From NCBI GenBank assembly GCA_020057555.1, contig JAGVFR010000013.1:1-61715 (forward strand): 61,715 nt of DNA, written 5' to 3'. The DNA comes from a bacterium (lineage in GTDB: Bacteria; Patescibacteriota; Patescibacteriia; UBA9934; GWF2-40-263). The notes beneath the pieces were generated by a model. That model was not told the DNA's origin, did not search any database, and saw nothing but the letters and a program-made list of their open reading frames with translations. Positions 1,245 through 56,241 of the stretch are shown here, piece by piece (the first letter of the stretch is position 1; each line of letters opens with the position of its first letter). The position numbers and the translations under genes were made by a program.

Positions 1245-1371
1245 ATATTGTTCTTTTATGAACGTCGAGATTATAGCAAAGGGTTAATCTGCAGGCAAGG
1301 CTTTAAATATTGCCAACAATAATAAAACATGCTATACATTTGAACACAATTTCCTTGGAGGGAATAAAAAA

Positions 1372-1653
1372 ATGGATTCGAAAGAGGAACTGGTCACACG
1401 GCTCACTAAACACGCCAAGAACATCAGCAGCATCACTATAACGTGGAACGCGTCTGATGGCGGACCGCGAATGGACATCAATCTGATAGCTAGAAACGGA
1501 AGTGACTTGGACAGCTGGAACGACTGGATGATTCTCGGCGATGGAGGTAGAACGACCGGAGCCGACATTATCATCAATATCATAAGGAGTGTACTTCCTC
1601 ACGCAGGACTCACAGATCGAGGAAACTTTCATCTTCGTTTCGAAATTTCCTAG
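1372..1653 (+). CDS. hypothetical protein (93 aa), GC-richer, SD-led
   Basis: ORF preceded by GGAGGGAATAAAAAA-ATG and followed by an intrinsic terminator. No recognisable motif. Confidence 0.5.
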   Translation: MDSKEELVTRLTKHAKNISSITITWNASDGGPRMDINLIARNGSDLDSWNDWMILGDGGRTTGADIIINIIRSVLPHAGLTDRGNFHLRFEIS

Positions 1654-1670
1654 AATCGCTCACGCGTCTG

Positions 1671-1696
1671 CCTTCACACTATGTGAAGGTTTTTTT
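1671..1696 (+). terminator. intrinsic terminator
   Basis: CCTTCAC-loop-GTGAAGG followed by TTTTTTT. Confidence 0.6.
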
Positions 1697-1918
1697 ATTT
1701 TGTGATATACTTTTATTATAAACTTAAAAGCAAACATATGGCCAAAGGAAAAAACGCGAGAAAGAACATTAAGAAACCGAAGAAAAACGCTAAAAAGAAA
1801 TAAAAAGAGATAGGTTTTGGATAAGTAATTCTTATAAGAAGTATATACGTCCATACTTTTACAGAGGTGTGGACGTTTTTATAGTTCATTAACACTGGTA
1901 TCTTTTTTATCATCACTG

Positions 1919-1947
1919 TTGACACACAATCCGTGTAATAGTACAAT
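1919..1947 (+). promoter_or_regulatory. sigma70-type promoter of the ArsR-family gene
   Basis: TTGACA, 17-nt spacer, TACAAT. An inverted repeat TTAAAC-N11-GTTTAA just downstream is a possible operator. Confidence 0.55.
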
Positions 1948-1983
1948 TAAACTATTAAATAAGTGTTTAATTGATGTAATTTT

Positions 1984-2322
1984 ATGCTTAACAAAAATGA
2001 AATCATTAAGAAGCAAAAACTTCTTAATGAAACTGATGAAAGAATGGCGAATACATTTAAAGCGCTTAGTGACGTGAATCGCTATCGCATTTTTCGTATT
2101 CTTGCAAAACAACCGCAGCTTACTGTCAGCAACATCGCTAAAATATTGAAAATATCAGTCCCTTTAGCATCGCAACATGTAAAAGTCTTAACGAATGCAA
2201 AAATATTGCAAAAGGAACGGGTTGGGAAGAAAATTTTCCCAAAAATTAAACATAGTAATCCGTTTGTCAAAACTGTTATTAAAACAATTCCCTACTGTAC
2301 AAGAGGTGATTATTTCGATTGA
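1984..2322 (+). CDS. ArsR/SmtB-family transcriptional regulator
   Basis: FKALSDVNRYRIFRILAKQPQLTVSNIAKILKISVPLASQHVKVLTNAKIL matches the ArsR winged-HTH pattern. Confidence 0.8.
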   Translation: MLNKNEIIKKQKLLNETDERMANTFKALSDVNRYRIFRILAKQPQLTVSNIAKILKISVPLASQHVKVLTNAKILQKERVGKKIFPKIKHSNPFVKTVIKTIPYCTRGDYFD

Positions 2323-2374
2323 TGGAAATACAGAAAATATTTTACAACCTTAACGAACATTCAATTACATATAT

Positions 2375-2905
2375 ATGACCAACAAATATTTATTTTTAAT
2401 GGCCTTTTCTTTTCCACTATTATCAATGGGTGCCGGATGTGCAATTCAAAATACATATGATCAAACAAATGCGAGCTACAGGAAATATGACAATACAGGC
2501 GCTCAAAATTCTTTTGTTTCATCAACTACCGAAAATTCATTGCCATCTTTACCAACCACATGTACAGACCAAGAGGATGGCATGCCAGTCATCACATCAT
2601 TGTCAAGTTACTCTGGTCCAGTTGGAACAACGCTCGAAATAAGCGGCTGTAATTTTGCTGGTTTCGAAGGAGACCTGAATGCATGGATCGAAGATATCGA
2701 TGGAGTAAAGGGAGTTCTGCATTCAGAAGTTGGATCCACAGAGAAACTCTTGAAGGTCGTCCTCAAATCAAAACTCTGCCAAAAGGATATTTCTTATAGC
2801 GGCCTTACTTGTGACGCGTCGTTAGTTTTAGTTCCTGGAACATATAAAATCTTTGTGTCGCCATGGGGAAAAACAAGCAACAATGTAATATTTGAAATCG
2901 AATAA
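2375..2905 (+). CDS. lipoprotein with IPT/TIG-like domain
   Basis: Signal peptide with lipobox LSMGAGC. PVITSLSSYSGPVGTTLEISGCNF is IPT/TIG-like. Confidence 0.55.
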   Translation: MTNKYLFLMAFSFPLLSMGAGCAIQNTYDQTNASYRKYDNTGAQNSFVSSTTENSLPSLPTTCTDQEDGMPVITSLSSYSGPVGTTLEISGCNFAGFEGDLNAWIEDIDGVKGVLHSEVGSTEKLLKVVLKSKLCQKDISYSGLTCDASLVLVPGTYKIFVSPWGKTSNNVIFEIE

Positions 2906-2973
2906 GTTCAAAATATCCCAAATGTGAAACGACAAAATATCTTATAAACTTACTAATTCACTCACTTTTCAAT

Positions 2974-3264
2974 ATGAAAAATAAATTAAAAAAAGGGCTC
3001 ATAATTGGAAGCCTGCTTGCAGTCGGAGCAGCAATTGGATTTGCAACTACAAAAGACATGAAACAAATTGCAAAAGACTTAAAAAAAAATCTAAATAAGT
3101 TGCAAGATGTTACAAAAGTAGAGTTTGATGAATTAGTCACAAAAGCCGTTGAGAAACATGCAAAAAAAATGGATCTTACAAGTGATGCTAGACAAGCACT
3201 TATGACTGCTTTACGAGCAAGTTGGCGTGAAATCGAAAAAGAATGTCATTCAGGGAAAAAATAA
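2974..3264 (+). CDS. YtxH-like membrane-anchored protein
   Basis: N-terminal GLIIGSLLAVGAAIGFATT followed by a charged helical region. Confidence 0.4.
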   Translation: MKNKLKKGLIIGSLLAVGAAIGFATTKDMKQIAKDLKKNLNKLQDVTKVEFDELVTKAVEKHAKKMDLTSDARQALMTALRASWREIEKECHSGKK

Positions 3265-3274
3265 AGGAATAATT

Positions 3275-3673
3275 ATGAAAAAAATAATCATCATATTAAT
3301 TGTTTTAGCAATTTCAGCAATCATATCGTCTTTAATATTAGCTAAATTTAAAAACGATAAACAAACTGCCGATATTTCAATTTCTGAACATGAAGCTCCT
3401 TTGGCAGAGAACGAAACAAACGAAAAAATTAAACAATTATTCGTAGAAAAGTACCCATCTTTTACTGACACTATCAAAGTGACAATAAATCAAGAAACTC
3501 AAAAGCACGCACGAGGTATAATAAAATTCGTTTCTGACGCTTCTGGAGGAATCTTCCTAGCTACAAAAATCGACGAAAAATGGCAGATAGTATTTGATGG
3601 CAATGGAACAATCCCATGCAGTCTTTCAAAATACGAATTTCCAGATAAGATGTTGTCGGATTGTGCAAAATAG
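3275..3673 (+). CDS. hypothetical membrane-anchored protein
   Basis: ATG at 3275 follows AAAGGAA. N-terminal TM helix KKIIIILIVLAISAIISSLILA. The upstream part of the 3227 ORF overlaps the previous gene. Confidence 0.5.
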   Translation: MKKIIIILIVLAISAIISSLILAKFKNDKQTADISISEHEAPLAENETNEKIKQLFVEKYPSFTDTIKVTINQETQKHARGIIKFVSDASGGIFLATKIDEKWQIVFDGNGTIPCSLSKYEFPDKMLSDCAK

Positions 3674-3702
3674 TTGTGTAAATATTCTATTTGAACAGTC
3701 CC

Positions 3703-4035: not shown

Positions 4036-4083
4036 TTCAAATATTAAATAAAAAAAAATGACGATGTCGGTCGTCAAATTCAG

Positions 4084-4479
4084 CTAGTCAGACTTGCGCG
4101 TTCTTGTCACAAGAACTTCTTGAACGAAGATTTGCGGTTCCTCCCAAGGGTGAACTTCGACAATTGCGTCAAGGACTTCGCGAAGACGCACCACGTCTTT
4201 TGATCCTCCACGTGGAAGCGTGAACGAAAGTTCGATCGATGGAACTGCTGATCGTCTTCCTATTTCACCAATCGCCGGCTTCGCGCCTTCAAGAGATCGG
4301 TATTTTTCGAGTCCTATCCCCGACTCGAACACAACTTGATCGTACTTAACTCCGTAACGAAGCGGATCGTGCTCTAAGATGGCATTGGTAACTCTTTCTT
4401 TGAATCCATTGTAGCTCGATACCACAACTGTAACTCGAAATACTCGTTCAAACCCAAACACCTTGCTTCCTTCTGCCAT
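4084..4479 (-). CDS. NIF3/YqfO-associated PII-like domain protein (COG3323-like)
   Basis: YRSLEGAKPAIGEIGRRSAVPSIELSF...VHPWEEPQIF resembles the F-RPLEGANPFIGEVG...HPYEEPAY pattern. Start chosen at the ATG after GAAAGGAGGTCAT. Confidence 0.5.
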   Translation of the reverse strand: MAEGSKVFGFERVFRVTVVVSSYNGFKERVTNAILEHDPLRYGVKYDQVVFESGIGLEKYRSLEGAKPAIGEIGRRSAVPSIELSFTLPRGGSKDVVRLREVLDAIVEVHPWEEPQIFVQEVLVTRTRKSD

Positions 4480-4557
4480 ATGACCTCCTTTCAAAATGAA
4501 AAGTAGCAGATATATGTAAAATTGAAAAGGTTAAAAATATGATAAAATGTTCCTCAC

Positions 4558-5436
4558 ATGAAAACCATCACAACAACATACAAAAATCCTGATCTTGATG
4601 GATACGGATCCGCAATGGCATACGCGGAATTTCTTCGAGCAAAAGGAAAAGACGCTACTGCTCATATTTGGGGCACACCGCATCTTGAAGTTCAATGGCT
4701 TCTTGATACATTCAAACTTCCGAATGCAAAAGGCCAAACAGACGACATAACATCAGAAGTCATTCTTTTGGACGCAAGCAGTCCGGAGGATTTACCAAAA
4801 CCACTTCAAGCAAAACAAGTTATAGAGATTATAGACCACAGAAAAGTCAACGATGTTAACGCTTTTCCAAATGCTACTTCACAAATTGAGCTTGTTGGAG
4901 CGTCTGCCACGCTTGTGGCTGAACGATTCAAAAAAGCGAATCTGGAGCCATCAAAAGAATCAGCGTTGTTTCTTTATGGAGCAATAATTTCAAACACAGA
5001 AAACTTCACTGGAATATTTACTGACCGCGATAAAGAAATGGCAAGTTGGTTGAAACAAATTTCAAATGCGCCGGATGATCTTGCACAACAAATGTTCATT
5101 GCAAAATCCGACTTGTCAGGAAATCGATTGAGAGAAATGTTGTTCGGAGATTTGAAAGTAATTGTTATTCAAGGGAAAACTTTTGCGATTGGTCAGATTG
5201 AGATAATTGGCGTTGACGAGCTTTTGAAAAATCGTCGAGAAGAGATCACGGACATAATGAGGGAAATTCAAAAGACAAACAACTCCGATTTTACTTTTGT
5301 GAATTTTAAGGATCTTGAAAAAGTCTCGTCAAAAAATCTTTGTCTTGATGAGAAAACAACAGAACTCTTGAAAGATTTGCCAGATTTGAAATTTAGAAAA
5401 CATATAATCGCTTGGATTCAGGAAAAGCTAAAATAA
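4558..5436 (+). CDS. DHH/DHHA2 phosphoesterase, family II inorganic pyrophosphatase-like
   Basis: NPDLDGYGSAMAYAEFL, LLDASSPEDL, IIDHRK (variant of the DHH motif), and a C-terminal DHHA2-like region. Confidence 0.6.
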   Translation: MKTITTTYKNPDLDGYGSAMAYAEFLRAKGKDATAHIWGTPHLEVQWLLDTFKLPNAKGQTDDITSEVILLDASSPEDLPKPLQAKQVIEIIDHRKVNDVNAFPNATSQIELVGASATLVAERFKKANLEPSKESALFLYGAIISNTENFTGIFTDRDKEMASWLKQISNAPDDLAQQMFIAKSDLSGNRLREMLFGDLKVIVIQGKTFAIGQIEIIGVDELLKNRREEITDIMREIQKTNNSDFTFVNFKDLEKVSSKNLCLDEKTTELLKDLPDLKFRKHIIAWIQEKLK

Positions 5437-5664
5437 AAAACGACCCGAGTGGGTCGCAGAGTAGATGACAGGAAGCGATAGAATATCTTCTCACTCTTCG
5501 TAATCGAACCTCACGAACACTTTTGTTCTCGAACCATGCCGTTGACAGCTTTTTGCCGCTTGCAACAAAGCGCGTCCAAGACGGTCTCGATCTCTTAAAG
5601 AGAGATCACTGGTTTGAAAAAACCCTTGAGCTATTATCAAGGTAGTCCGGCAGACAGGAAGAAG

Positions 5665-5919
5665 TTAAATGTTCTTGATCGAAGGATCATGCACCAATGA
5701 AGGAACATGTCCGCTGTCGAATGAAACAACGACATTAATAGCGTCTTCCAATTCTGGAACTTTTGCTGAAATTGTCGCCCGACGAAGAGTGTCACTCATG
5801 CATCGCTTGAAAGCGTTGTCAGTTGCGACTGCTCCAGCAAAACATCCTTCAACAGGTGCATCGCCGTTTCCGAGTTCGTTGAACGAACTCGGCCAGTTTT
5901 TCACGTTGATAATGAGCAT
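5665..5919 (-). CDS. hypothetical protein (84 aa), second gene of a GC-rich two-gene operon
   Basis: ATG at 5919 follows AGGAGGTCTC. A terminator CCTTGA-N7-TCAAGG plus T-run lies downstream (plus-strand 5617-5640). The longer 5665..6111 ORF is Ser-rich upstream of this ATG. Confidence 0.45.
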   Translation of the reverse strand: MLIINVKNWPSSFNELGNGDAPVEGCFAGAVATDNAFKRCMSDTLRRATISAKVPELEDAINVVVSFDSGHVPSLVHDPSIKNI

Positions 5920-5948
5920 GAGACCTCCTGTGCTTGACGCTAAATGCG

Positions 5949-6380
5949 TCAGGTTGAACGACGGTGACGAGACAATGCTTGAAACGGAGCTCGCAGTACA
6001 GCGGACAACAGAGTTCCGCAATAGAACCTTGCTGAACGAAGTTGTCGGCGAAACTTCCGATATCTGTCCTCGAAAGCAGTCGGCGGCCACTCGGTTTTTG
6101 GAGCTTTGCATGGAATCTGTGTTCGAACAAATCCATCAACCTTTATCATGTTGTTCGTCTTGATCCTAAGAACAATGTACCAAGTGTTCTCACAGATATT
6201 CACATAGAGTCCATCGTTTCTGAACTGCATTGCTGTGATCGTTGCGTGTGGCCCATGATCCACCACGAATCCGCCGCTACCAGTTGTTCCGATTTCGGTT
6301 TGTTCGCAGGCGATCGAGTTTCCAAACGCCGCTTTCAGACGTTTTTCAAGATCAAGCCTGACTCCTCTCATAGCTTCCAC
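5949..6380 (-). CDS. hypothetical protein (~143 aa), first gene of the GC-rich operon divergent from the serpin
   Basis: SD AAGAGGTG precedes GTG at 6380 (alternative ATG at 6371). Contains IGTTGSGGFVVDHGPH. Arg-rich C-terminal tail. No family recognised. Confidence 0.45.
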   Translation of the reverse strand: MEAMRGVRLDLEKRLKAAFGNSIACEQTEIGTTGSGGFVVDHGPHATITAMQFRNDGLYVNICENTWYIVLRIKTNNMIKVDGFVRTQIPCKAPKTEWPPTAFEDRYRKFRRQLRSARFYCGTLLSAVLRAPFQALSRHRRST

Positions 6381-6486
6381 TTTTTTCACCTCTTTTCTTG
6401 TCTTGGAAACAGACGCTTTTGCAGACTACCCAAAAAAGTATTTTTTGTCTATAGTGTGCATTGACCATTGAGAAAAGGAGGTGCGC

Positions 6487-7386
6487 GTGGAATTAGTTGA
6501 AAAAAGAAGCTTCGCACAGAGTATCTGGCCAATAGATGCCAGTCTGGTTATGGCAGAGCGATTCCTTCTTGGGCCAAATCGAGTTTGGCGATATGTCAAT
6601 CAAACACAAGAAGCCTTTATTCGCGACCACCTCGGTGTCAGTCGCGGAGGATCACTTGATGTTGTGAGATCTATCGCAAGCTATTTAGCGCATGAGATCG
6701 AAGCATGGCTCAAACAACACGGCTTCGAAATCAAAATTGAAACGCTCGAAAGAAACGAGTTCAGTGTCGCGAGTGTTTTGGACGTTCTTTTGAAGTGGCC
6801 TCAAGATTGTGCTGAAAAGTCTGAACTTCACGTTGACGAAACACGCTATACTGGCGTTTGGATCAAACGAGGCGCGAAGTTCCTTTACACTTCAGCTCAA
6901 GACACACCAAAAAAACCGATCGTCAAACTCCCAACGGACAACAAGAGCATCAACGTATTTCTAACAATGCTTGACGAGCCTCCGCTCGGCGAATTCGGTC
7001 TTGTAACTTACGCCAGATACCTCTCTAGCGTAAACAAACAGTGTCTGGATTTGTATGACACTGTTGGTGTGCTCTTTCCAATGATCCAACTTGAGGAACA
7101 TTCGCGACTCGACTGGATCAGAAAAATGTGGACGTTTGACAGTGCTGGATTTCCAGCATTGATTAAACAAGCTGTTCAGATCAACCGCCTGCGCATGAAC
7201 GAGGATGGAGTCCGCGCACAGAGCGCTGTTCAAATTCGAATTCCTACAATCGGAGGATCTTCTCGAAAACCGTACATCTTCAACCATCCGTTTTTGCTGT
7301 GGATAGAACACGACAGCTCTCCAGAACCATTGTTCTCTGCTTGGCTCAACTTTGACTCGTGGAAAAACCCTCATGGCCTGAAGTAA
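6487..7386 (+). CDS. short divergent serpin-family protein
   Basis: Hinge-like NEDGVRAQSAV. YIFNHPFLLWI fits the serpin signature as I remember it. C-terminus PLFSAWLNFDSWKNP matches serpin ...LFMGRVxNP. VLFPMIQLEE resembles the LPKFKLE strand. SD AAGGAGG. Confidence 0.7.
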   Translation: MELVEKRSFAQSIWPIDASLVMAERFLLGPNRVWRYVNQTQEAFIRDHLGVSRGGSLDVVRSIASYLAHEIEAWLKQHGFEIKIETLERNEFSVASVLDVLLKWPQDCAEKSELHVDETRYTGVWIKRGAKFLYTSAQDTPKKPIVKLPTDNKSINVFLTMLDEPPLGEFGLVTYARYLSSVNKQCLDLYDTVGVLFPMIQLEEHSRLDWIRKMWTFDSAGFPALIKQAVQINRLRMNEDGVRAQSAVQIRIPTIGGSSRKPYIFNHPFLLWIEHDSSPEPLFSAWLNFDSWKNPHGLK

Positions 7387-7448
7387 ATTCTATACTTCGG
7401 CCTTTTTTTATTGCTAAAATTTGAGAAATTTGATAGACTTCTTGCATT

Positions 7449-8696
7449 ATGTCAAGAGAAGAACTCAACCAAGAAACATTTTTCGGACTGGGAATAGCTC
7501 CAACACTGTTAGAAAGACTCGAAAAGCTTGGATTTAAGCATCCAACACCAATTCAATTCAAAGCAATTCCAGTTGCCGCAACAGGCGAAGATCTTATTGG
7601 AATTGCGCAAACCGGCACTGGAAAAACACTGGCTTTCACGATTCCAATGCTTCAGCAAATGTCTGCACGTTCAAAAATGGGGCTTGTACTCCTCCCTACT
7701 CGCGAGCTTGCTGTTCAGGTTGATGAGGTCTTGCGCAAAATTGGTTTAACAATGGGTCTTCGCACAGCAGTGCTAATCGGCGGAGTACCAATGAGTCCGC
7801 AAATCAGACAACTTCGCGCAAAACCTCACGTGATTGTTGCAACACCTGGTCGTCTTATTGATCATCTTGAACAAAAAAACTTGAAGCTGGATAGAGTTGG
7901 AGTGTTGGTGCTAGATGAAGCGGATCGAATGCTTGATATGGGATTTGCGCCTCAACTTAAAAAAATTCTTGTTACTGTTCCAACTGATCGTCAAACAATG
8001 TTGTTTTCAGCGACAATGCCGGAGGAGATTGCAAAGATCGCGCGAACATACATGAAACAGCCATTGCGCATCGAGGTTGCTCCATCTGGAACAACGATCG
8101 AAAAAGTTGATCAGGAAGTTTACATTGTTTCAAAAACTGAAAAGGCTCAACTGCTCGAACGTTTACTCAAAGAATACAAAGGCACGGTTCTTTTGTTCAC
8201 TCGCACAAAACATGGCGCAACAAAAGTCGCGCGCATGGTGAAACTAATGCATCATTCAGTTACGGAGATCCATTCCAACCGTTCACAAAACCAACGCCAA
8301 GATGCTATACGAGGTTTTTCATCTGGCAAGTATCGTGTTTTGGTTGCAACAGATATTGCCGCTAGAGGGATTGATGTAAAAAACATCGAACTTGTTTTGA
8401 ATTTTGATTTACCGGATCATTTGGAAGATTATGTTCACCGTATTGGACGAACAGGACGAGCAGGCAAAGCTGGCAAAGCGATTTCGTTCGCGGCGCCTGA
8501 ACAAAAAGCAGATGTCCGCGGAATTGAAAGACTAATTAGAAAAACACTTGCAATGAAAACTCCATCAGGAGAACCTGTTGCGCCAGAACAGCCTCGGCAA
8601 TATCATCACACACCACGAAACAGACGAACTGATTCTGATTTTCGTGGTCAATCACGAAATCGACGTAGTCCAAGACAGCAAAGCCATCATCGTTAA
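7449..8696 (+). CDS. DEAD-box ATP-dependent RNA helicase
   Basis: AQTGTGKT, DEAD, SAT and HRIGRTGRAG motifs; basic C-terminal tail. Confidence 0.95.
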   Translation: MSREELNQETFFGLGIAPTLLERLEKLGFKHPTPIQFKAIPVAATGEDLIGIAQTGTGKTLAFTIPMLQQMSARSKMGLVLLPTRELAVQVDEVLRKIGLTMGLRTAVLIGGVPMSPQIRQLRAKPHVIVATPGRLIDHLEQKNLKLDRVGVLVLDEADRMLDMGFAPQLKKILVTVPTDRQTMLFSATMPEEIAKIARTYMKQPLRIEVAPSGTTIEKVDQEVYIVSKTEKAQLLERLLKEYKGTVLLFTRTKHGATKVARMVKLMHHSVTEIHSNRSQNQRQDAIRGFSSGKYRVLVATDIAARGIDVKNIELVLNFDLPDHLEDYVHRIGRTGRAGKAGKAISFAAPEQKADVRGIERLIRKTLAMKTPSGEPVAPEQPRQYHHTPRNRRTDSDFRGQSRNRRSPRQQSHHR

Positions 8697-8989: not shown

Positions 8990-9019
8990 TTTTTTCAAAA
9001 AAAGAAGCCCGGTCGGGCT

Positions 9020-9784
9020 TCAGAATTCATCGTCTGCTTCAGTAGATGCTGTTTCAACGACTTGAGTCGCGGCAATTCTCGGACATGGTTGCCAAGAACG
9101 CCTGCGGTATGAGAGATACCCTGTGAAGATGTGCCCGAGCAGAGAAAACATACCGAACGCGAGCGCGAAAAGGAAAATTGTGTCCACGATCATTACGATC
9201 GTTGGATGACGATAGCCTTCCGGCATGAAAACCAGAAACGCCATGCCAATGATCTCGGCCCAGATTTTGATTTTCCCGAATCTGTTACTGCTCACATTAT
9301 CGAGCTTGAGATACTGTTTGATCGGACGCATGAGCGTCAGACAAACAGCCGTGATTGTCAGTGAGACAATTACGCTTGTTGTAACATATCCGATTCCGAG
9401 CGAAAAAAGAACGAGAAAGAACCGTAACTTATCTGCAAGAGGATCAAGTGTGCGACCAAGGTGCGTGACACCTCGATAGTTGATGCGCTTCCAGAGTGTC
9501 ATCGACACTTCTTCATCAAGTGACATTGGTTTTCGAGCACCTTGTTGATAACGACTCAATGCGCCGTCCACGAAATCCGTGACAAGACTGATAGTGAGAA
9601 GAATGGCACCAATGACGTAGTGGTCGAATATGAACAGCAGACACATCGGAATGCAGATAATCAAACCGATGAATGTCACTTGATTGGCTGTGAAATGATC
9701 GGAAAGCCAACGTCCTACTGATTTCGAAAGCCCTTGCACAGGTCCGAACTTCGGATCCTTGAGCCAGCGGCCAAATCTCCTCAT
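9020..9784 (-). CDS. CDP-alcohol phosphatidyltransferase family protein
   Basis: DFVDGALSR...GRTLDPLADKL matches D-x2-DG-x2-AR...G-x3-D-x3-D; multiple TM helices. Confidence 0.8.
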   Translation of the reverse strand: MRRFGRWLKDPKFGPVQGLSKSVGRWLSDHFTANQVTFIGLIICIPMCLLFIFDHYVIGAILLTISLVTDFVDGALSRYQQGARKPMSLDEEVSMTLWKRINYRGVTHLGRTLDPLADKLRFFLVLFSLGIGYVTTSVIVSLTITAVCLTLMRPIKQYLKLDNVSSNRFGKIKIWAEIIGMAFLVFMPEGYRHPTIVMIVDTIFLFALAFGMFSLLGHIFTGYLSYRRRSWQPCPRIAATQVVETASTEADDEF

Positions 9785-9876
9785 GATCTCCCTCCTTGTA
9801 GATCTGACGTGCTGATGTTAGACCTATTCAGGAATTTGTCAAAAATAAAACAGGCTCACTCGAGCCTGTTTTATTA

Positions 9877-13183: not shown

Positions 13184-13244
13184 AACGCTTACACATTACC
13201 TCTTATTCGAGGATCATCGCAAATATTGGAGAATGGTAATGAAG

Positions 13245-13273: not shown

Positions 13274-13306
13274 TCTATGTCCTGAGTCAAAAGTATGGAG
13301 GACATC

Positions 13307-14128
13307 ATGGCTGACAAAGGAAACTTGCTGAAAATCACATTCACTGACGAGGGTGAACTCGTAGTTGAATACCCCGGAGGAATTCGAGATCGAACCGGGA
13401 TATTCACCTCGCTCCAAGAAAAACGCACGGTTCTCGAGTTTGCCATGACAACCGCAGGACAAACTCTTCTCATGAGACAAAGGGGACGGGAAATTCACGA
13501 CCCGCTCACAAGTCTTTTGCGTCGTCAACCTGGCCGCGAGTTAATTCAACAGCAATTGGTACGAATTGCGGCAATGCCATTTACAGGGACGATTTCAATC
13601 ATCCTGATGGATCTTGATCACTTCGGAATACTCAACAAGCAATATGGTATGAGTGTTGGAGATGAAGTGCTCCGCTGGTTCGCACATATTCTCACCAGAA
13701 GAACAAGAAGTTCTGATGTGATTGTGCGATGGGGTGGCGAAGAGTTCCTGGTCTTTACCTCTGCGGGTCTGGCACCGGACGAACGTGGCAAGGCTCGCGA
13801 CAGAGACACTTCGACTAACGCCTTTGTCCAAACAGGTGCCACAGATAGAAGTCTGGGACCAGTTCTGAACAATGGAGAGATAGTCGCTGGTCGTTTCATG
13901 ACAAGTGCTGAGGCTGGACCATGTATGGTTGGTGGTTTAGCGATCAAACAACGAGTTACGATTGCTGTGGCAACACACATCATCACTTCAGCTGAAGACA
14001 GAGACACACTCGCCGAAGGTGTGTTCGAAGGTCTATTCGAACAAGCCGATGCTCTTCTTCGAAAAGCAAAGACTGATGGGCAACGTGGACGGATCTTCTC
14101 TTTCAACAAAGCCATGCAAATCAAGTAA
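13307..14128 (+). CDS. stand-alone GGDEF-domain protein (diguanylate-cyclase-like) with an internal insertion
   Basis: DPLTSLLRR, DLDHFGILNKQYGMSVGDEVL, RWGGEEF, ADALLRKAKTDGQRGRIF. A ~50-aa insert sits after the GGEEF strand. Start taken at the ATG after GGAGGACATC. Confidence 0.75.
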   Translation: MADKGNLLKITFTDEGELVVEYPGGIRDRTGIFTSLQEKRTVLEFAMTTAGQTLLMRQRGREIHDPLTSLLRRQPGRELIQQQLVRIAAMPFTGTISIILMDLDHFGILNKQYGMSVGDEVLRWFAHILTRRTRSSDVIVRWGGEEFLVFTSAGLAPDERGKARDRDTSTNAFVQTGATDRSLGPVLNNGEIVAGRFMTSAEAGPCMVGGLAIKQRVTIAVATHIITSAEDRDTLAEGVFEGLFEQADALLRKAKTDGQRGRIFSFNKAMQIK

Positions 14129-14144: not shown

Positions 14145-14170
14145 GCGCCTTTAACAAAAGGCGCTTTTTT
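14145..14170 (+). terminator. intrinsic terminator
   Basis: GCGCCTTT-AACA-AAAGGCGC followed by TTTTTT. Confidence 0.75.
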
Positions 14171-15019: not shown

Positions 15020-15073
15020 AAAGAGATCCTTCGGCTTATTGCCTCAGGATGACGCAAGAAAGTCAACTTGAAA

Positions 15074-15136
15074 TTCGCCATTGACAAATGGCGAATTTTT
15101 TATTAGTCTGGGAACTTTCCAGAACATCTCTGGAAA
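15074..15136 (+). promoter_or_regulatory. terminator-promoter-operator module, copy 1
   Basis: Hairpin TTCGCCATT-GACA-AATGGCGAA plus TTTTTT. The same bases give TTGACA (15081), a 17-nt spacer and TAGTCT. A perfect palindrome TTTCCAGA-ACATC-TCTGGAAA follows at 15116-15136. Confidence 0.6.
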
Positions 15137-15149
15137 AAGCGGAGGAAAA

Positions 15150-16154
15150 ATGAGCAAGTGGACTTTCAACGCAATCCAAGTCAGACAAGATGGCCAAATC
15201 GAAAAGGTTGGACTGTCACCGCATCAATTCACGCGAATCGACAAATATATAGCTGCACTTGAGGCGGCCGCAAGTTCAACCGTTGCCAATCCGATTTTCT
15301 CTCAATACTTTGTCAGAGAGAGCGTTGTGCCAGTACTTGGTGCAATTGTACCGGCTGGCAACATCGAATACGGCCTGTGCCAAGCACTTCATGGCGAAGA
15401 GGCCATTGTGGCCGCGTATCGAAGTAGGTGTGGCAGATCTACTCAAGACGTAGTTATCGGAATCATTGCCGGAAGTCCTGGCAACATCGCGACACCTTGT
15501 GGAAACTGTCGAGATATCTTACTCGATGATCTTGGCACTGATTTCGAAATCGTGTCTGGCGTGGCAGACGGCGGAGAAGCGGTCGTGGCTAACATGAGCC
15601 ACTTTCTGTTTTCAAAGTTCAAGACCTTGAGCACAATCGAAATCCATCCTGACTTGGATAACATGATCAAAGTAACAATTCACCATGGCGATCTTTTGGT
15701 GAACGACGCGTTCTCGCCAAAAAACGTTCACCCTGAACGCAAATATCACGCGCTCATTGCAACCAAAGTTGAGAGGTTCGTCGGCGCGCACGATGTGATG
15801 TGTGATTATCATCCTATCTACGCGCTTCGCGACGCTATTCGCCAAGCAAGACGAAAACACGATCCGTTTGTTCAATCGGTCGTGATTGTAAGCAAAGGCT
15901 CCGGCGAAAAAGCGCCTCATGTCATGTACAAGGATCGTCAGCATCTGCTGTCGCTCAATCTACAAGCAGAATTGCTCGCAAAAGAAGAAAACGATCCACC
16001 AGTCTTTCTCGCAACATACGATGATAAACACAAGGTAACTGGACTGTGGCAAACAAGCGTAAAGCAATGGTTGCCTCTTCCCTTCACTTCTCGCAACTTC
16101 GGCCAGGAACACATTGAGTTACTGACCAACTACTACAAAGGTATAAGGAGATAA
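15150..16154 (+). CDS. two-domain cytidine-deaminase-like protein
   Basis: LHGEEAIVAAY and TPCGNCRDILLD match the CDA zinc motifs (H/C-A-E, PCxxC). The second half is CDA-fold-like but lacks the Glu and Cys ligands (DYHPIYALRDAI). Ends LPLPFTSRNFG, similar to the CDA LLPxxFGP tail. SD GCGGAGG. Confidence 0.6.
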   Translation: MSKWTFNAIQVRQDGQIEKVGLSPHQFTRIDKYIAALEAAASSTVANPIFSQYFVRESVVPVLGAIVPAGNIEYGLCQALHGEEAIVAAYRSRCGRSTQDVVIGIIAGSPGNIATPCGNCRDILLDDLGTDFEIVSGVADGGEAVVANMSHFLFSKFKTLSTIEIHPDLDNMIKVTIHHGDLLVNDAFSPKNVHPERKYHALIATKVERFVGAHDVMCDYHPIYALRDAIRQARRKHDPFVQSVVIVSKGSGEKAPHVMYKDRQHLLSLNLQAELLAKEENDPPVFLATYDDKHKVTGLWQTSVKQWLPLPFTSRNFGQEHIELLTNYYKGIRR

Positions 16155-16171
16155 AGTCCTCTCCGACACGG

Positions 16172-16229
16172 CCGCTATTGACAAATGGCGGTTTTTTTGT
16201 TATTTTTTCTATTCCAGAGTGTTTCTGGA
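16172..16229 (+). promoter_or_regulatory. terminator-promoter-operator module, copy 2
   Basis: Hairpin CCGCTATT-GACA-AATGGCGG plus TTTTTTT. TTGACA (16178), 17-nt spacer, TATTTT. Palindrome TCCAGA-GTGTT-TCTGGA at 16213-16229. Confidence 0.6.
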
Positions 16230-16297
16230 TAAGCCAGTGGCTGGGCCGAAAACATACAGCCAACTTGGTCCTTTGGACCATAGGAAGGAGAAGAGTA

Positions 16298-17041
16298 ATG
16301 CCTCTTCGCACGGGTCGACAGGTTCCGATCGGCAACGGGTCCACTCTCATGATACTCGGTGTTGAGCCAGTGGATCGAGAGCTTTGGGAAAGCCACGAGA
16401 CAGTTCAAGGTCATTGGGTCTACTTCATGGCGCACATTCAGAGTCATGTAGAACCTGCATATGTCAGAGAAGCTATCGTTCACATTCACGCACGAGCGAT
16501 CTGGAAGCTTATGTGCCCGAACAAGCTCGAACAACCACACACAATTCTCATCTCACCTCATGATGAAAGCAACTGGATGAGAGTGATGTTCAGACGACGG
16601 ATCGAAGGTGAACTGTATGATCACAAAAAGTTCCTCCACAACGAAGCGAAAAATCTCAAACACATCTGGCAACTTGTTCGTTACGCTGAATCCGGCTATA
16701 CGAATGAGAACAAGATGTTCAGCACGAGCAAGCTCGGAAGAGAGTGTCCGATTCAGCCATGTCACATAAGAATCGAGGACGGTGTACGACTAGGTCTCGG
16801 TATACCTGAAGCAGAAAAAACCGCGCACCTCATTCTGACATTAGCCAGAGTGATGAGCAGTTGGGGTCCTCGAACAGCCGACTTGTTGGTACTGGGTCTT
16901 AAGATGAAGAGAAGTGAGATATTGAACGGTCTCAACTATCTCATCGAGAACGACTTTCTTGCGAGCGAACCCGATGAAGTTGGATACATCATCCGCGAGA
17001 AATTCGTTGTTCATTGCTGGCGTGCTTTCTTGCACAGCTAA
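16298..17041 (+). CDS. hypothetical protein (247 aa), possible C-terminal winged-helix
   Basis: ATG follows GGAAGGAGAAGAGTA. The C-terminal region MKRSEILNGLNYLIENDFLASEPDEVGYIIREKF looks wHTH-like. No family recognised. Confidence 0.5.
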   Translation: MPLRTGRQVPIGNGSTLMILGVEPVDRELWESHETVQGHWVYFMAHIQSHVEPAYVREAIVHIHARAIWKLMCPNKLEQPHTILISPHDESNWMRVMFRRRIEGELYDHKKFLHNEAKNLKHIWQLVRYAESGYTNENKMFSTSKLGRECPIQPCHIRIEDGVRLGLGIPEAEKTAHLILTLARVMSSWGPRTADLLVLGLKMKRSEILNGLNYLIENDFLASEPDEVGYIIREKFVVHCWRAFLHS

Positions 17042-17057
17042 CACTTCACCACCTTGG

Positions 17058-17088
17058 CTCTTGTCATTTCTCTGACAAGAGTTTTTTT
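17058..17088 (+). terminator. intrinsic terminator
   Basis: CTCTTGTCA-loop-TGACAAGAG followed by TTTTTTT. Confidence 0.75.
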
Positions 17089-17283: not shown

Positions 17284-17322
17284 ATTGTAAATAGTATAGC
17301 ATAAGTGATAAAGTGAAAAAGT

Positions 17323-44251: not shown

Positions 44252-44286
44252 AGATGTGTAAACAGTTTACCACAAAACTCATTCTA

Positions 44287-54629: not shown

Positions 54630-54760
54630 AGTGGAATTATTTTAGCACACTTTAACACTGGACAAAATCTCGAGGAATGCAGTATATACTTAACGGGTAT
54701 ACTCTATGGACAAAAAACAGTCGATGATGTAATATCTTTTTGTTCATATTTAATGTCACC

Positions 54761-54797
54761 TTTACTACTCCGCTACTTTACTACTCTGCTACTATCC
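54761..54797. repeat. CTACTTT word repeat (family T)
   Basis: CTTTACTACTCCGCTACTTTACTACTCTGCTACTATCCC ends 3 nt before the rpmB ATG. Confidence 0.6.
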
Positions 54798-54800
54798 CAT

Positions 54801-55046
54801 ATGTCAAAATCTTGTCTTATCACTGGCAAAAAAACTACTGTTGGAATGCATGTTTCACACTCAAAACGAAGAGTGAAACGCAAACTTTTTGCTAATTTGC
54901 AAACTCGTCGACTTTTGAATCCTGCGACCGGCAAAATGGTCATGGTCACGATTTCAAACCGCGGTTTGCGTACTCTCAAAAAATGGGATCGCGAGGGAAA
55001 AAAGTACGATCTCGCCGCATTGAAAAAAGCAGAACATATCGCATAA
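54801..55046 (+). CDS. rpmB: 50S ribosomal protein L28
   Basis: MSKSCLITGKKTTVGMHVSHSKRRVKRKLFANLQ. The longer track ORF is a spurious extension. Confidence 0.9.
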   Translation: MSKSCLITGKKTTVGMHVSHSKRRVKRKLFANLQTRRLLNPATGKMVMVTISNRGLRTLKKWDREGKKYDLAALKKAEHIA

Positions 55047-55053
55047 ATAAAAA

Positions 55054-55096
55054 CCAGTTACGCCCTTCGACAAGCTCAGGGTATAACTGGTTTTTT
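55054..55096 (+). terminator. intrinsic terminator after rpmB
   Basis: CCAGTTA...TAACTGG followed by TTTTTT. Confidence 0.65.
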
Positions 55097-55102
55097 GATT
55101 AA

Positions 55103-55129
55103 ACAAAAAAGCAACCCAGAACGGGTTGC
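55103..55129 (-). terminator. intrinsic terminator after the Cys-rich gene
   Basis: Minus strand: GCAACCC-loop-GGGTTGC followed by TTTTTT. Confidence 0.7.
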
Positions 55130-55166
55130 AGAGTATTGGATGAGAAATACATTGGACGAAGTTATC

Positions 55167-56141
55167 TCACATTTCACCGCATTTTCCACATTTGAGACTT
55201 TCGACTTGCTTTTCTGTCAAGCAGTCTTCACAAGAAGAAGTCCCATTGCAAGAAATCTGAATACAGAGATCGTGGTGAATCCTGCTTCGCACATCCGAAT
55301 CTGTCCATTTGTGTTTCCACCAAGCATAAAATTCTCGAATTCCCCTTTTCTTCCACTGAAACAACTTCTCCATAGAAAGTCCTGCTTGAAGATCTTGTGG
55401 AAAAAAGTCGTTGTGGTGAAGAAGACTAAACACTTCATTTACTAGATTGTGACGACCGAGAACTCCGTTACCGCGAGTGAAAAAGAACGGAGATGGGGTT
55501 ATGTCCAACTGGATGAGTTCCAATAGGAGCCTTGTCTTATAACGAATTTTCTGTTGAAGATTCGCTCTAACGTCTTCCGATGAGACAGACGAAGAGACAG
55601 AAACTGGGAATAACACTATGCGTTCCTCCGACTCGACTGTCAAGAATTCTGTCATTGTGTCGATACACCACCAAAGATCCTCACCTTCTTCCGCGAACAC
55701 ATCACGAACAAACATGTATTCGGACTTCTCTTGTTTCTGTTTGGATCCCTGCTTCTCACTCCTTACAGAAACAAGAGCGGATACGGAACTAAGGCAATCA
55801 GAAAGTATCTGATCATCCTTGCTTGGTTGAGGAGCTACTTCGCTCGGCTTGTCAGCCAGAGGAGAAGTTGCGGCCTCGAGAAACTCTACAACACCGACTT
55901 TCTTGCAGTTCTGACCCTGACACCCGATCTGCACGTTCTGATCTGGCTTGAAAGGCTCAACGTAACACCTCTCAAACCGTTCATCTAGCAACATTGTGAC
56001 GCAAGCTTCTGCGCTCATCCACAGACTCGGGTTGTCATCGCAGTGTGGCATCGGACATTCAACAATGAACTCCGATTTTTTCTCTTCGCTCTGGCACGCG
56101 AACTGGATGAAAAGAACAAAGCACACAAACAGACGCTTCAT
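55167..56141 (-). CDS. secreted/lipoprotein-like Cys-rich hypothetical protein
   Basis: Signal peptide MKRLFVCFVLFIQFAC. Cys clusters at both ends (CPMPHC..., CIQISCNGTSSCEDC...CGKCGEM). SD AAGGGAGG. GC-rich. Confidence 0.6.
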   Translation of the reverse strand: MKRLFVCFVLFIQFACQSEEKKSEFIVECPMPHCDDNPSLWMSAEACVTMLLDERFERCYVEPFKPDQNVQIGCQGQNCKKVGVVEFLEAATSPLADKPSEVAPQPSKDDQILSDCLSSVSALVSVRSEKQGSKQKQEKSEYMFVRDVFAEEGEDLWWCIDTMTEFLTVESEERIVLFPVSVSSSVSSEDVRANLQQKIRYKTRLLLELIQLDITPSPFFFTRGNGVLGRHNLVNEVFSLLHHNDFFPQDLQAGLSMEKLFQWKKRGIREFYAWWKHKWTDSDVRSRIHHDLCIQISCNGTSSCEDCLTEKQVESLKCGKCGEM

Positions 56142-56197
56142 GACGAACCTCCCTTTTCGATATATTTCGCCGTAATTGGCGGTAAATCGAACAATTC

Positions 56198-56226
56198 AGG
56201 ATAACCCAAAATAGAGATTTTGTCAA
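56198..56226 (-). promoter_or_regulatory. promoter of the Cys-rich gene
   Basis: Minus strand: TTGACAAAATCTCTATTTTGGGTTATCCT (TTGACA, 17-nt spacer, TATCCT). It is close to the zinc-finger gene promoter TTGACAAAATCTGTAAATTCTGGTATTCT. Confidence 0.5.
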
Positions 56227-56241
56227 TCATTTTACGAAAAA

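Follow-up and report, generated by a model that had tools for sequence, protein, structure and literature searches.

Shine-Dalgarno (SD) motifs are scarce in CPR bacteria, and the Parcubacteria have partly lost the anti-SD (PMC9297842, PMC10783764), CCTCCT being missing from about half of their 16S sequences (PMC9297842). A quadruplet pairing between U(-1) and A37 has also been described (PMC10018350). The window analyzed here, the whole stretch of 61,715 nt with 62 curated genes, comes from the chromosome of an uncultured Candidatus Uhrbacteria (CPR/Patescibacteria) bacterium, as identified from the relatives of its RpoD and hyp334. An initial annotation had proposed that GC-richer genes with strong SD sites stand in a low-GC, largely SD-less backbone. 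Our data confirmed that this dichotomy is real and stronger than first stated.

The SD class comprises 12 genes, or 13 if the small gene starting at 38853 is counted, and makes up about one in five of the window's genes. Its members have a GC content of 0.45 to 0.50, a GC3 of 0.42 to 0.58, and a GGAGG-type SD 3 to 10 nt 5' of the start, whereas the backbone of about 49 genes has a mean GC of 0.402, a GC3 of about 0.31 to 0.33, and no SD. All 12 motifs listed initially were found 3 to 10 nt 5' of an ORF-opening ATG or GTG, and the genes behind them, with GC values of 0.454 to 0.499 (0.565 in the 48-aa gene that starts at 38853) and GC3 values of 0.415 to 0.575, exceeded the backbone in both measures (Mann-Whitney, P = 2e-6 for GC and P = 2e-5 for GC3). 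The list had missed one member, a CDP-alcohol phosphatidyltransferase gene starting at 9784 on the minus strand. With cutoffs of GC ≥0.45 and an SD duplex dG ≤-6.8 kcal/mol, the two-by-two table of GC against SD was 12/2/1/47 (Fisher P = 5e-10), and tests of the association covered the window together with about 30 related loci. The claim that every GC-richer gene has an SD held for all 12 genes named but not for Csp (GC3 of 0.51), HU (GC3 of 0.54), or a 63-aa basic Zn-ribbon gene (17092-17283, minus strand); since these are GC-rich and lack an SD, GC alone does not dictate SD use. Among the genes named as SD-less backbone, dnaG, with normal GC, carries a GAGGT that is conserved but, at 11 nt upstream, mis-spaced, and the one called trmB encodes a TrmB-family transcription regulator.

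Could chance purine-rich motifs or biased start choice mimic such a class? Some starts were curated by eye, and about 20 chance combinations of SD and start occur within genes. However, a start-agnostic automated caller reproduced the association, which was also replicated with independent database gene calls at other loci, and SD positions are conserved among orthologues. GGAGG occurs 62 times on the two strands of the window; 9 copies lie 2 to 13 nt 5' of curated starts, where 0.37 would be expected, and all 9 belong to GC-rich genes. A GC-matched null gives a dG of ≤-9 at 1.5% of sites, against 10 of 12 observed, and none of 17 operon-internal genes reached ≤-7. We regard an artefact as effectively refuted.

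The two gene sets differ in the whole layout of their starts. A U at -1 precedes 43 of 50 backbone starts but only 1 of 12 SD-class starts (P = 7e-7), compared with 12% of internal Met codons; an SD and a U(-1) exclude one another. Among backbone first genes, 8 of 31 have TGnTAnnnT ending 6 to 14 nt 5' of the start (0.24 expected), against 0 of 11 in the SD class. The DEAD helicase exemplifies this arrangement (7431-7451, plus strand): its extended -10 box, TGATAGACT, ends 9 nt before the ATG, which has U(-1) and no SD. Boxes of the same kind precede DHH (4540-4548), hyp102 (17306-17314), and PEGA (60178-60186) and, on the minus strand, PilM (27585-27593), hyp162 (44264-44272), LOG (54639-54647), and RibF-C (58236-58244). 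With such a box 8 to 12 nt 5' of the ATG, the transcripts are predicted to be leaderless or to have leaders of a few nucleotides. Internal backbone genes are coupled, either overlapping by 1 to 4 nt or standing no more than 17 nt apart. SD-class genes, on the other hand, are laid out as monocistronic units with a predicted -35/-10 promoter, a leader of 20 to 55 nt, and their own terminator, which directly follows each of the nine such genes at 1 to 20 kb, hyp143 excepted. Consensus TTGACA promoters had been reported initially for several GC-rich genes; an exact TTGACA -35 occurs in 5 of 11 SD-class units versus 2 of 31 backbone first genes. The region from -30 to +30 also folds more stably in the SD class (-10.3 versus -6.0 kcal/mol; P = 3e-4).

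At the left end of the window, hyp93 (1372-1653, plus strand; 93 aa, no family) has GGAGG at 1357-1361 with a spacer of 10, a terminator at 1670-1690, a GC of 0.482, a GC3 of 0.543, and a dG of -9.8. The 131-aa hyp131 (4084-4479, minus strand; GC, 0.477; dG, -12.6) has AAGGAGG at 4484-4490 with a spacer of 4 and a terminator at 4059-4076, and its probable counterpart in L141 (128 aa), judged by syntenic slot, is GC-rich (0.494) and carries GAAAGGAGGG. hyp84 (5665-5919, minus strand; 84 aa; GC, 0.455; dG, -11.0), with AGGAGGT at 5923-5929 and a terminator at 5624-5642, follows hyp143 at a distance of 29 nt, and the two may form a bicistronic unit. hyp143 itself (5949-6380, minus strand; 143 aa, GTG start; GC, 0.486; dG, -7.1) has GAGGTG at 6387-6392, and its orthologues in L083 (90%) and L141 keep GAGGTGA. 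hyp299 (6487-7386, plus strand; 299 aa, GTG start; GC, 0.463; dG, -13.1) has AAGGAGGTG at 6475-6483, a terminator at 7378-7400, and a weak serpin-like match; a search of 5.8 billion proteins gave only 6 homologues, and a homologue in L139, at 47% identity, is still GC-rich and has AAAGGAG. The CDP-alcohol phosphatidyltransferase gene (9020-9784, minus strand; GC, 0.475; GC3, 0.506; dG, -11.7), with AAGGAGG at 9791-9797, a terminator at 9004-9021, and a predicted promoter TTGACA-16-TAACAT, has an orthologue of 87% identity with an identical SD in L083. The GGDEF-domain gene (13307-14128, plus strand; 273 aa; GC, 0.487; dG, -9.3), divergent from dnaG, has GGAGG at 13297-13301, a terminator at 14145-14164, and a predicted TTGACA-17-TAGTTT promoter with TG; it is absent from L083 and L084, and a 56% homologue in L138 adjoins DnaG-RpoD.

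Next to one another stand hyp334, a two-domain cytidine-deaminase-fold protein (15150-16154, plus strand; GC, 0.480; GC3, 0.490; dG, -9.5), with GGAGG at 15141-15145 and the conserved leader hairpin CCAGAACATCTCTGG, and hyp247 (16298-17041, plus strand; 247 aa, no family; GC, 0.484; GC3, 0.528; dG, -9.4), with AAGGAG at 16285-16290 and a terminator at 17056-17083. Both have their -35 TTGACA within a terminator loop, hyp334 in that of the yjjX hairpin (15070-15099) and hyp247 in that of hyp334 (16170-16193). The DUF218 gene (18118-18702, minus strand; 194 aa; GC, 0.491; dG, -11.8) has AAGGAGG at 18711-18717 with a spacer of 8 and a terminator at 18088-18108; across four genomes, its 5' UTR is conserved in the SD-ATG block and nowhere else, the remainder being unalignable. 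The weakest SD of the class, GAGGTG at 28330-28335, precedes hyp218 (27669-28325, minus strand; 218 aa; GC, 0.499; GC3, 0.575; dG, -6.9), which has no match in PDB or Pfam. On the basis of its sequence, zf48 (38707-38853, minus strand; 48 aa), with a C2H2-like zinc finger (Pfam E = 3e-5), AAGGAG at 38860-38865, a GC of 0.565, a GC3 of 0.92, and a dG of -8.2, is probably a real small gene of the SD class, and the 115-aa ORF antisense to it (38641-38988, plus strand) looks artefactual. Lastly, hyp324 (55167-56141, minus strand; 324 aa; GC, 0.454; dG, -12.2), Cys-rich with a signal- or lipoprotein-like N terminus, has GGAGGT at 56147-56152, a predicted TTGACA-17-TATCCT promoter, and relatives in only 12 clusters among 1.84 billion representatives.

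Repeated acquisition, gene by gene, from SD-using, higher-GC donors was one of the two explanations offered initially; the foreign SD and unameliorated composition would have been kept, and sigma-70 promoters picked up or brought along. Such import would fit the atypical composition, the narrow families, and the faster evolution of SD-class proteins, and GeneMarkS-2 takes such "atypical" genes as likely horizontal transfers (10.1101/193490). Turnover at SD-class sites is pointed to only by two cases, both in L081, where MsrAB and a methyltransferase occupy the hyp247 slot (L085 has a hyp247 fragment) and the DUF218 allele is only 54% identical. Polarised synonymous changes in the class lean only slightly toward loss of GC (92 S-to-W versus 70 W-to-S; implied equilibrium GC3 of 0.42, current 0.48), and DUF218 alone appears to be decaying in GC. 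However, orthologues in independent assemblies (L081, L083, L084, L085, and L141) retain synteny, high GC, and the SD. Seven genes are syntenic in relatives, namely, hyp131, hyp143, hyp299, CDP-alcohol phosphatidyltransferase, hyp334, and DUF218, with GGDEF in a 56%-identical relative, and their divergence follows the backbone order. The hyp334, GGDEF, and hyp299 families are still GC-rich with an SD down to 47 to 56% identity, and this combination is kept at 47 to 62% amino acid identity, where synonymous sites are saturated. The search for nearest homologues yielded no donor outside the CPR: the families are CPR-wide or confined to close relatives, all homologues found are CPR or uncultured, and none beyond these is closer than the CPR ones. 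Phage (PHROGs and IMG/VR) and defence libraries gave no match except generic GGDEF-domain ones (to seven PHROGs families of unknown function), and neither mobility genes nor repeats were found at SD-class genes. The one probable island of the window with real integration hallmarks, region 1-3700 with a recombinase and tRNA-Asn, is AT-rich and SD-less. The split is shared by inheritance with related genomes, so the DNA is not a fresh import; and since orthologues keep synteny, GC, and SD, with the homologues found confined to CPR or uncultured sources and no phage or defence matches, a recent origin outside the lineage is poorly supported, and we consider it improbable.

Exchange within the CPR is possible, if still unlikely. 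Here the genes would descend vertically in the short term, but in the long term homologous recombination between CPR lineages, whether or not GC-biased conversion goes with it, would exchange or replace them and hold them near a pool average of about 48 to 50% GC, as promoter-SD-terminator cassettes expressible in any recipient. The autonomous, cassette-like build of SD-class genes, their CPR-only homologues, and the DUF218 and hyp247 replacements between conserved flanks suit this idea, as does the CPR-wide hyp334 family, whose GC3 stays at about 0.45 to 0.52 across lineages with a backbone GC3 of 0.30 to 0.50. Where a CPR genome has a very low or high GC, however, hyp334 follows host composition, its gene GC tracking genome GC from 0.33 to 0.67, which also speaks against import. 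Moreover, hyp334 identity falls in the order L083 > L085 > L081, the backbone order that vertical descent predicts, GC-biased conversion should also have raised the GC of conserved flanking genes, and no recombination breakpoint was directly evident.

Codon usage bears on the further proposal that SD genes are no more than the leadered genes with the highest expression and that translational selection favoring C-ending codons has raised their GC3, as in Csp and HU. The consensus promoters and the strength of the SDs agree with it, and the shift is mostly toward C-ending NNY codons (TTC, 0.60 versus 0.19 in the backbone; AAC, 0.69 versus 0.37; ATC, 0.50 versus 0.25), parallel to Csp, HU, and L28. 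Yet pooled usage is less biased than that of the backbone (Nc, 54.5 versus 46.2), near-unbiased codons being as import would also predict, and third positions are near-uniform (A,.25; C,.27; G,.21; T,.27). G-ending or rare codons rise (AGG, CTG, TCG, and CAG), unlike in Csp and HU, as does CCG, an increase of AGG, CTG, and CCG being compatible with import too; GC1, GC2, and a K-to-R shift are raised as well. The proteins evolve faster rather than slower, and the clearly highly expressed Csp, HU, and L28 lack an SD. The rejection is only moderate, as the reference set holds only about 240 codons, but expression bias strikes us as very unlikely.

We therefore favor, with a probability of about 55%, a resident, heritable class of SD-dependent genes beside an SD-independent majority, two start signals operating side by side. 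This supports and extends the other initial explanation, a distinct translational regime, in that SD and U(-1) exclude each other, leaders and promoters differ, and the SD is conserved, both in the otherwise unalignable DUF218 5' UTR and across the hyp334 family. In that family, dG is ≤-8 in 21 and ≤-7 in 22 of 33 homologue loci, whereas strong SDs have a background frequency of mostly 5 to 13% in Patescibacteria loci (0 to 38% across the loci scanned), in contrast to 50 to 61% in Firmicutes. The label "accessory" is only partly apt for a set that includes a cytidine-deaminase-fold enzyme and a lipid synthesis enzyme. According to this model, the majority, about 80% of genes and the housekeeping backbone, would initiate without an SD; operon-first genes, often with extended -10 promoters, would have leaderless or few-nucleotide-leader mRNAs. 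Starts of the majority lie in AU-rich, weakly folded RNA, and their U(-1) probably adds a pair with A37 of the initiator tRNA to the codon-anticodon duplex, as published E. coli and chloroplast work suggests. The minority of 12 to 13 genes would each form a self-contained unit of promoter, leader, SD, non-U(-1) start, coding sequence, and terminator. Their mRNAs are GC-richer and more stably folded near the start. Pairing of the SD with the 16S anti-SD would most likely anchor the 30S subunit in cases where a route relying on unstructured RNA would fail. Orthologues holding position, SD, and high GC in related genomes suggest that the class, a mix of lineage-restricted, fast-evolving hypothetical proteins and a few enzymes, is inherited. 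Weighing against this reading are the hyp334 GC3 offset, which is large within the Uhrbacteria clade alone and close to zero farther out in the CPR, the GC-rich genes that lack an SD, and the turnover seen at hyp247 and in the L081 DUF218 allele. Neither the window nor any other locus retrieved contains a 16S gene, and so many Parcubacteria 16S sequences lack CCTCCT that it is only from conservation that we infer a functional SD-anti-SD interaction. The high synonymous GC might stem from selection acting on mRNA properties, from recombination accompanied by GC-biased conversion, from within-CPR gene flow, or from very slow amelioration.

The same split is seen with database gene calls at five other CPR loci, where strong-SD genes have a GC of 0.503 versus 0.447 and U(-1) occurs at 1 of 8 strong-SD starts versus 46 of 72 (P = 0.007).

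Our data confirmed that the strength of Shine-Dalgarno (SD) sequences in this window (61.7 kb, 41.4% GC) tracks gene composition. We curated 62 protein genes, the GC-rich ones by hand, computed GC for each codon position of every gene, and scored SD strength as the best duplex energy (dG, in kcal/mol) that the 20 nt preceding the start can form with a canonical anti-SD, ACCUCCUUU. With cutoffs of GC ≥ 0.45 and dG ≤ −6.8, the genes gave a two-by-two table of 12/2/1/47 (Fisher p = 5e-10), and 49 of the 62 had a dG above −6.8. All SD motifs listed in the initial annotation were recovered, 3 to 10 nt before an ORF-opening ATG or GTG, and the compositional offset that it had described is real. Twelve genes have a dG of −6.9 to −13.1, a GC of 0.45 to 0.50, and a third-position GC (GC3) of 0.42 to 0.58, while the other curated genes cluster at a dG of ~0, a GC of ~0.40, and a GC3 of ~0.31 to 0.33; between this SD class and the largely SD-less backbone, the offset is +0.07 in GC and +0.13 in GC3.

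Counting both strands, the window contains 62 copies of GGAGG; nine sit 2 to 13 nt before curated starts, where 0.37 would be expected, and all nine belong to GC-rich genes. Under a GC-matched null drawn from the interior of the same GC-rich genes, a dG of ≤ −9 has a probability of 1.5%. An automatic, start-agnostic caller also recovered the association. Chance pairs of an SD and a start are present inside genes of the window; at the heads of ORFs, pairs of an SD and a start are confined to the GC-rich class, except for an upstream in-frame ATG of the rpmB ORF (54570). When long ORFs served as the training set for a codon model, most of the GC-rich genes were left uncalled, which supports their atypical codon usage.

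The two classes required some refinement. The listed SD genes hold, but the list had missed the gene for a CDP-alcohol phosphatidyltransferase (9020-9784, minus strand, start at 9784). The claim that every GC-richer gene carries an SD stands for 12 genes but not for Csp, HU, and an unannotated gene (17092-17283, minus strand; GC 0.49) encoding a very basic 63-aa Zn-ribbon protein that is 92% conserved in the related locus L081; the promoter of this gene, TGCTATACT, lies 9 nt before the ATG and is of the leaderless type, and the gene has no SD. Likewise, most backbone genes lack an SD as described, with the exception of dnaG, which has a conserved but mis-spaced GAGGT. That SD-like element (within 13184-13210, minus strand) lies 11 nt before the dnaG start, a noncanonical spacing, and is also kept upstream of dnaG in three related loci (L083, L084, and L138), where its presence, not its spacing, was scored. 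At 38641-38988, two antisense ORFs overlap: a 48-aa C2H2-like gene starting at 38853 (38707-38853, minus strand; GC3 0.92), which has an SD and is probably real, and a 115-aa Leu-rich ORF on the plus strand, which would be ATGA-coupled to rimK and run into tRNA-Gln and looks like an artifact.

The backbone has a start signal of its own. A U directly before the start codon, U(−1), is found at 43 of 50 backbone starts (86%) versus 1 of 12 SD genes (p = 7e-7), and at only 12% of internal Met codons and 18% of all ATG triplets. Adenines are also present in the backbone (A(−4) at 25/50, A(−3) at 19/50), with U(−1) the dominant signal. The pattern was replicated with the gene calls that databases give for five other CPR loci, where U(−1) precedes one of eight strong-SD genes versus 46 of 72 SD-less genes (64%), and GC is 0.503 in strong-SD genes versus 0.447 in the others. 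Examples of UAUG starts in the backbone lie at 7449, 27575, 47500, and 60124.

An extended −10 box, TGnTAnnnT, ends 8 to 12 nt before the ATG in 8 of 31 operon-first backbone genes (0.24 expected), at 4540-4548, 7431-7439, 17306-17314, and 60178-60186 on the plus strand and at 27585-27593, 44264-44272, 54639-54647, and 58236-58244 on the minus strand; no SD gene has a box of this geometry. More generally, TAnnnT occurrences peak 9 to 14 nt before the starts of backbone first genes. Such a distance leaves room for a leader of a few nucleotides at most, and these operon-first mRNAs are therefore predicted to be leaderless or very short-leadered. Each of the 17 genes internal to a backbone operon overlaps its upstream neighbor or lies directly behind it (−4 to +17 nt), and none of them has an SD with a dG of ≤ −7, the best being −6.4 for hyp201 (hypN denotes a hypothetical protein of N aa).

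The SD genes, judged by their predicted signals, are autonomous transcription units. As the initial annotation had noted, several of the GC-rich genes use TTGACA promoters: an exact −35 is found in 5 of 11 SD genes versus 2 of 31 backbone first genes. Their predicted −10 box ends 20 to 56 nt before the start, and within 1-20 kb, eight of the nine SD genes are directly followed by an intrinsic terminator, the exception being hyp143, 29 nt upstream of hyp84. Folding of the region from −30 to +30 gave −10.3 kcal/mol for SD genes versus −6.0 kcal/mol for the backbone. The start region is thus more stably folded in GC-rich mRNAs, and we infer that such mRNAs are barred from the unstructured-RNA/UAUG route and need SD anchoring.

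The terminator hairpins after yjjX (15070-15099, plus strand) and hyp334 (16170-16193, plus strand) both contain TTGACA in their loops, where it doubles as the predicted −35 for the next gene, a layout conserved in L081 and L083 to L085. The hyp334 leader also carries, just before the SD (~15118-15135, plus strand), a small conserved inverted repeat, CCAGAACATCTCTGG, that could act as an operator or form a regulatory hairpin.

What holds the GC of these genes high is a separate question. Translational optimization for high expression would raise GC3, and a shift toward C-ending NNY codons is indeed common to the SD class and the ribosomal, HU, and Csp genes. However, this cause is unlikely, as codon bias is weaker in the SD class than in the backbone (pooled Nc, 54.5 versus 46.2), codons that are rare or end in G become more frequent, and protein evolution is fast, with a mean identity to the closest relative of 89% versus 94.5% for the backbone. 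On the Nc values and the rise in rare codons we largely rejected it, a rejection that is moderate, the high-expression reference set being small. Third positions of SD genes are near uniform (A,.25; C,.27; G,.21; T,.27).

Synonymous changes polarized among close relatives gave 182 GC-to-AT versus 255 AT-to-GC changes for the backbone, implying an equilibrium GC3 of 0.36 versus a current 0.28; the parsimony method is therefore biased upward by ~0.08. Read with that bias, SD genes showed 92 GC-to-AT versus 70 AT-to-GC changes (p = 0.10) and an implied equilibrium GC3 of 0.42 versus a current 0.48. Per gene, and under the same parsimony bias, fluxes look balanced in hyp334, hyp143, and hyp299, while that of the DUF218 gene is skewed and looks like decay. 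Among hyp334 homologs, a large GC3 offset is limited to those with a very AT-rich backbone, and SD strength shows a weak trend with the offset (Spearman, −0.43, p = 0.04; Mann-Whitney, p = 0.10) over genes that are not phylogenetically independent. Maintained selection, recombination with gBGC, CPR-internal gene flow, and slow amelioration are all possible sources of the high synonymous GC.

The window shows reduced-genome gene content (rpoD-dnaG, gatCA, ligA, lepA, recJ, nrdJ, dnaX, type IV pilus genes, and a VirD4-like ATPase) and only three tRNAs (tRNA-Asn, tRNA-Ser, and tRNA-Gln). Its RpoD is 67% identical to that of a "Ca. Falkowbacteria" MAG, with the next-best matches mostly from Patescibacteria MAGs, and hyp334 has orthologs at 82 to 90% identity, two of them named "Ca. 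Uhrbacteria"; on these matches, the source is assigned to an uncultured Uhrbacteria-like CPR bacterium.

The first of two explanations offered by the initial annotation was repeated acquisition from an SD-using, higher-GC donor. Acquired genes have atypical composition, and this is found here (GC of 0.45 to 0.50 versus 0.40; GC3 of 0.46 versus 0.33). Patchy distribution is not: only hyp247 is replaced, its slot in L081 being occupied by MsrAB and a methyltransferase, and a GGDEF gene is lost in L083 and L084. The gene order of the window is common to five independently assembled relatives (L081, L083, L084, L085, and L141), in which hyp131, hyp143, hyp299, the phosphatidyltransferase, hyp334, and DUF218 occupy the same slots and the syntenic SD-class genes keep a GC of 0.46 to 0.49 and an SD beside SD-less neighbors. 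The GGDEF gene has a 56%-identical homolog in L138, divergent from dnaG-rpoD as in the window, and is therefore ancestral and was lost in some lineages.

Homologs of the SD-class genes also point to residency. In a metagenome scan, the family of hyp334 (15150-16154, plus strand) was found at 51 loci, with the 5' end and start assignable in 33; the SD is kept in most of these, with a dG of ≤ −8 in 21 homologs (39 to 89% identical) and ≤ −7 in 22. Nearly all are GC-richer than their own flanks, with values that range from 0.33 to 0.67 in step with the GC of the host genome. A hyp299 homolog at 47% identity has a GC of 0.49 and AAAGGAG beside genes with a GC of 0.38. In the search for a donor, all hyp334 matches with a named source came from Uhrbacteria, Parcubacteria, or Patescibacteria; GGDEF, hyp299, and hyp324 belong to tiny families with members from uncultured organisms only. 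PADLOC gave no defense match, SD-class proteins had no match in IMG/VR viral contigs, and PHROGs gave only generic GGDEF-domain matches, which tie the GGDEF gene to families of unknown function.

Acquisition from outside is thus weakly supported, and the SD genes are, by synteny, CPR-only homologs, and the lack of mobility or phage matches, mostly not recent imports. They resemble classical acquired islands, for which Lawrence and Ochman reportedly proposed amelioration after acquisition, in that their base composition and codon usage are atypical, they evolve faster, and many of them encode hypothetical proteins. They differ in being single-gene units that lack mobility hallmarks and have conserved synteny, in an offset that persists over deep divergence, and in having homologs only within CPR. 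Compositional atypicality together with an SD should not be taken as evidence of recent HGT. Turnover at SD-class slots does occur, at hyp247 and at DUF218 (18118-18702), which is 54% identical to its L081 counterpart (4309-4887) between flanking genes at 88 to 94%, with L083 and L085 alleles at 92%; this suggests allelic replacement or rapid diversification. Nor is the SD class purely "accessory," as it had been called, since hyp334 is a two-domain protein of the cytidine-deaminase fold. PDB sequence searches with hyp247, hyp218, and hyp131 gave no match, and the AlphaFold model of hyp299 is poor (pLDDT 41).

Integration hallmarks are found only at 1-3700, an AT-rich, SD-less segment that is probably a true integrated element. 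Its large serine recombinase (123-1211) runs into tRNA-Asn (1170-1244), and only one SD-class gene, hyp93, lies near the two. The genes after the recombinase (ArsR, TIG-like, and two hypotheticals) have a GC of 0.32 to 0.39 and are SD-less; L141 has a NosD-like gene in place of the ArsR, TIG-like, and hypothetical genes. Elsewhere, an IS200-like Y1 transposase (24333-24809, within 24200-24860, minus strand) is flanked by the palindrome CCACGGCTTTAGCCGTGG, copies of which lie upstream of ligA and of the transposase, and the two resemble a REP/RAYT-like pair. A related ~170-bp segment lies at 25779-25944 and, in L081, at a different place (8362-8530).

Whether the SD functions was judged from conservation, which is the sole evidence, since neither the window nor 139 retrieved loci contained a 16S 3' end and about half of Parcubacteria 16S reportedly lack CCTCCT (PMC9297842). 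In DUF218, nothing in the 5' UTR other than the block AAGGAGG-N8-ATG can be aligned across four genomes, and the hyp334 family retains its SD across deep divergence. From this conservation, we infer that a working anti-SD persists in the lineage, unused by most genes. Under the same scoring, strong SDs are found at mostly 5 to 13% in Patescibacteria loci (range, 0 to 38%) versus 50 to 61% in Firmicutes loci. The gene for bS21, rpsU, is not in the window, and tblastn of all retrieved loci gave no homolog, an uninformative result.

The second explanation of the initial annotation, a distinct translational regime, is the better supported of the two. In its boldest form, to which we give a probability of only about 15%, the SD-led GC-rich genes are a conserved translational regulon switched on as a block via 16S anti-SD availability. 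Ribosomes of Uhrbacteria-type CPR would by default initiate by an SD-independent UAUG/leaderless route, for which high GC and structured leaders would silence these mRNAs. A change in anti-SD availability, for example, through occlusion by a bS21-like protein, heterogeneous ribosomes, or growth and attachment state, would then switch on a monocistronic set of cytidine-deaminase-like, lipid-synthesis, GGDEF, secreted Cys-rich, and orphan proteins.

If true, this would be a second independent case, beyond Bacteroidia, of the SD as a regulatory code and not a general start signal. The CPR make up a large share of bacterial diversity, yet their translation start is almost unstudied, and a scarcity of SDs and a partial loss of the anti-SD are all that published work notes. 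A sharp, heritable split between UAUG/leaderless and SD-led genes would offer a testable dual-initiation model for reduced genomes, explain miscalled starts and missed "atypical" genes in CPR MAGs, and provide the few cultivable CPR systems with a small, conserved group of candidate genes under different regulation.

The window is a variant of known SD-independent and dual-initiation systems. Low SD usage is known for several CPR groups (PMC9297842, PMC10783764); these reports concern the same superphylum and treat 16S anti-SD loss or variation and overall SD frequency, and contain neither a conserved GC-rich SD-led minority nor a U(−1) signal. The literature that we searched likewise contained no description of such a minority or of a U(−1) rule in CPR. 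In mechanism, Bacteroidia are the nearest analog: their ribosomes ignore SDs, the canonical 16S anti-SD being kept but sequestered by bS21/bS18/bS6, and anti-SD availability controls a few SD-led genes, rpsU among them (PMC7797042, PMC9976891, PMC13000453). Bacteroidia-type initiation in Flavobacterium johnsoniae shares genome-wide SD scarcity with what we see in the window and in Patescibacteria loci, start choice by AU-rich unstructured context and specific upstream nucleotides, and a small remaining set of strong-SD genes, for which the ribosome presumably keeps its anti-SD. However, the SD-led set here comprises ~20% of the window genes instead of one or a few and is compositionally distinct, the main context signal is U(−1) instead of A(−3), and many first genes look leaderless.

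Group C of GeneMarkS-2 (10.1101/193490) has a Pribnow box ~10 nt from operon-first starts, a second gene population with SD, and a subset of atypical composition, all as here. There, internal operon genes use the SD, whereas here 0 of 17 do and only monocistronic genes of atypical composition carry it; the atypical genes here are also GC-richer, not GC-poorer, and conserved in relatives, not sporadic. Finally, in the quadruplet pairing described by PMC10018350 and the work that it cites, a U immediately 5' of the start codon favors start selection by U-1:A37 pairing with the initiator tRNA, an effect that is modest in E. coli. The same nucleotide directly precedes the start here, but it is near-obligatory in SD-less genes and avoided in SD-led ones, which suggests that U(−1) plays a primary role in start recognition.
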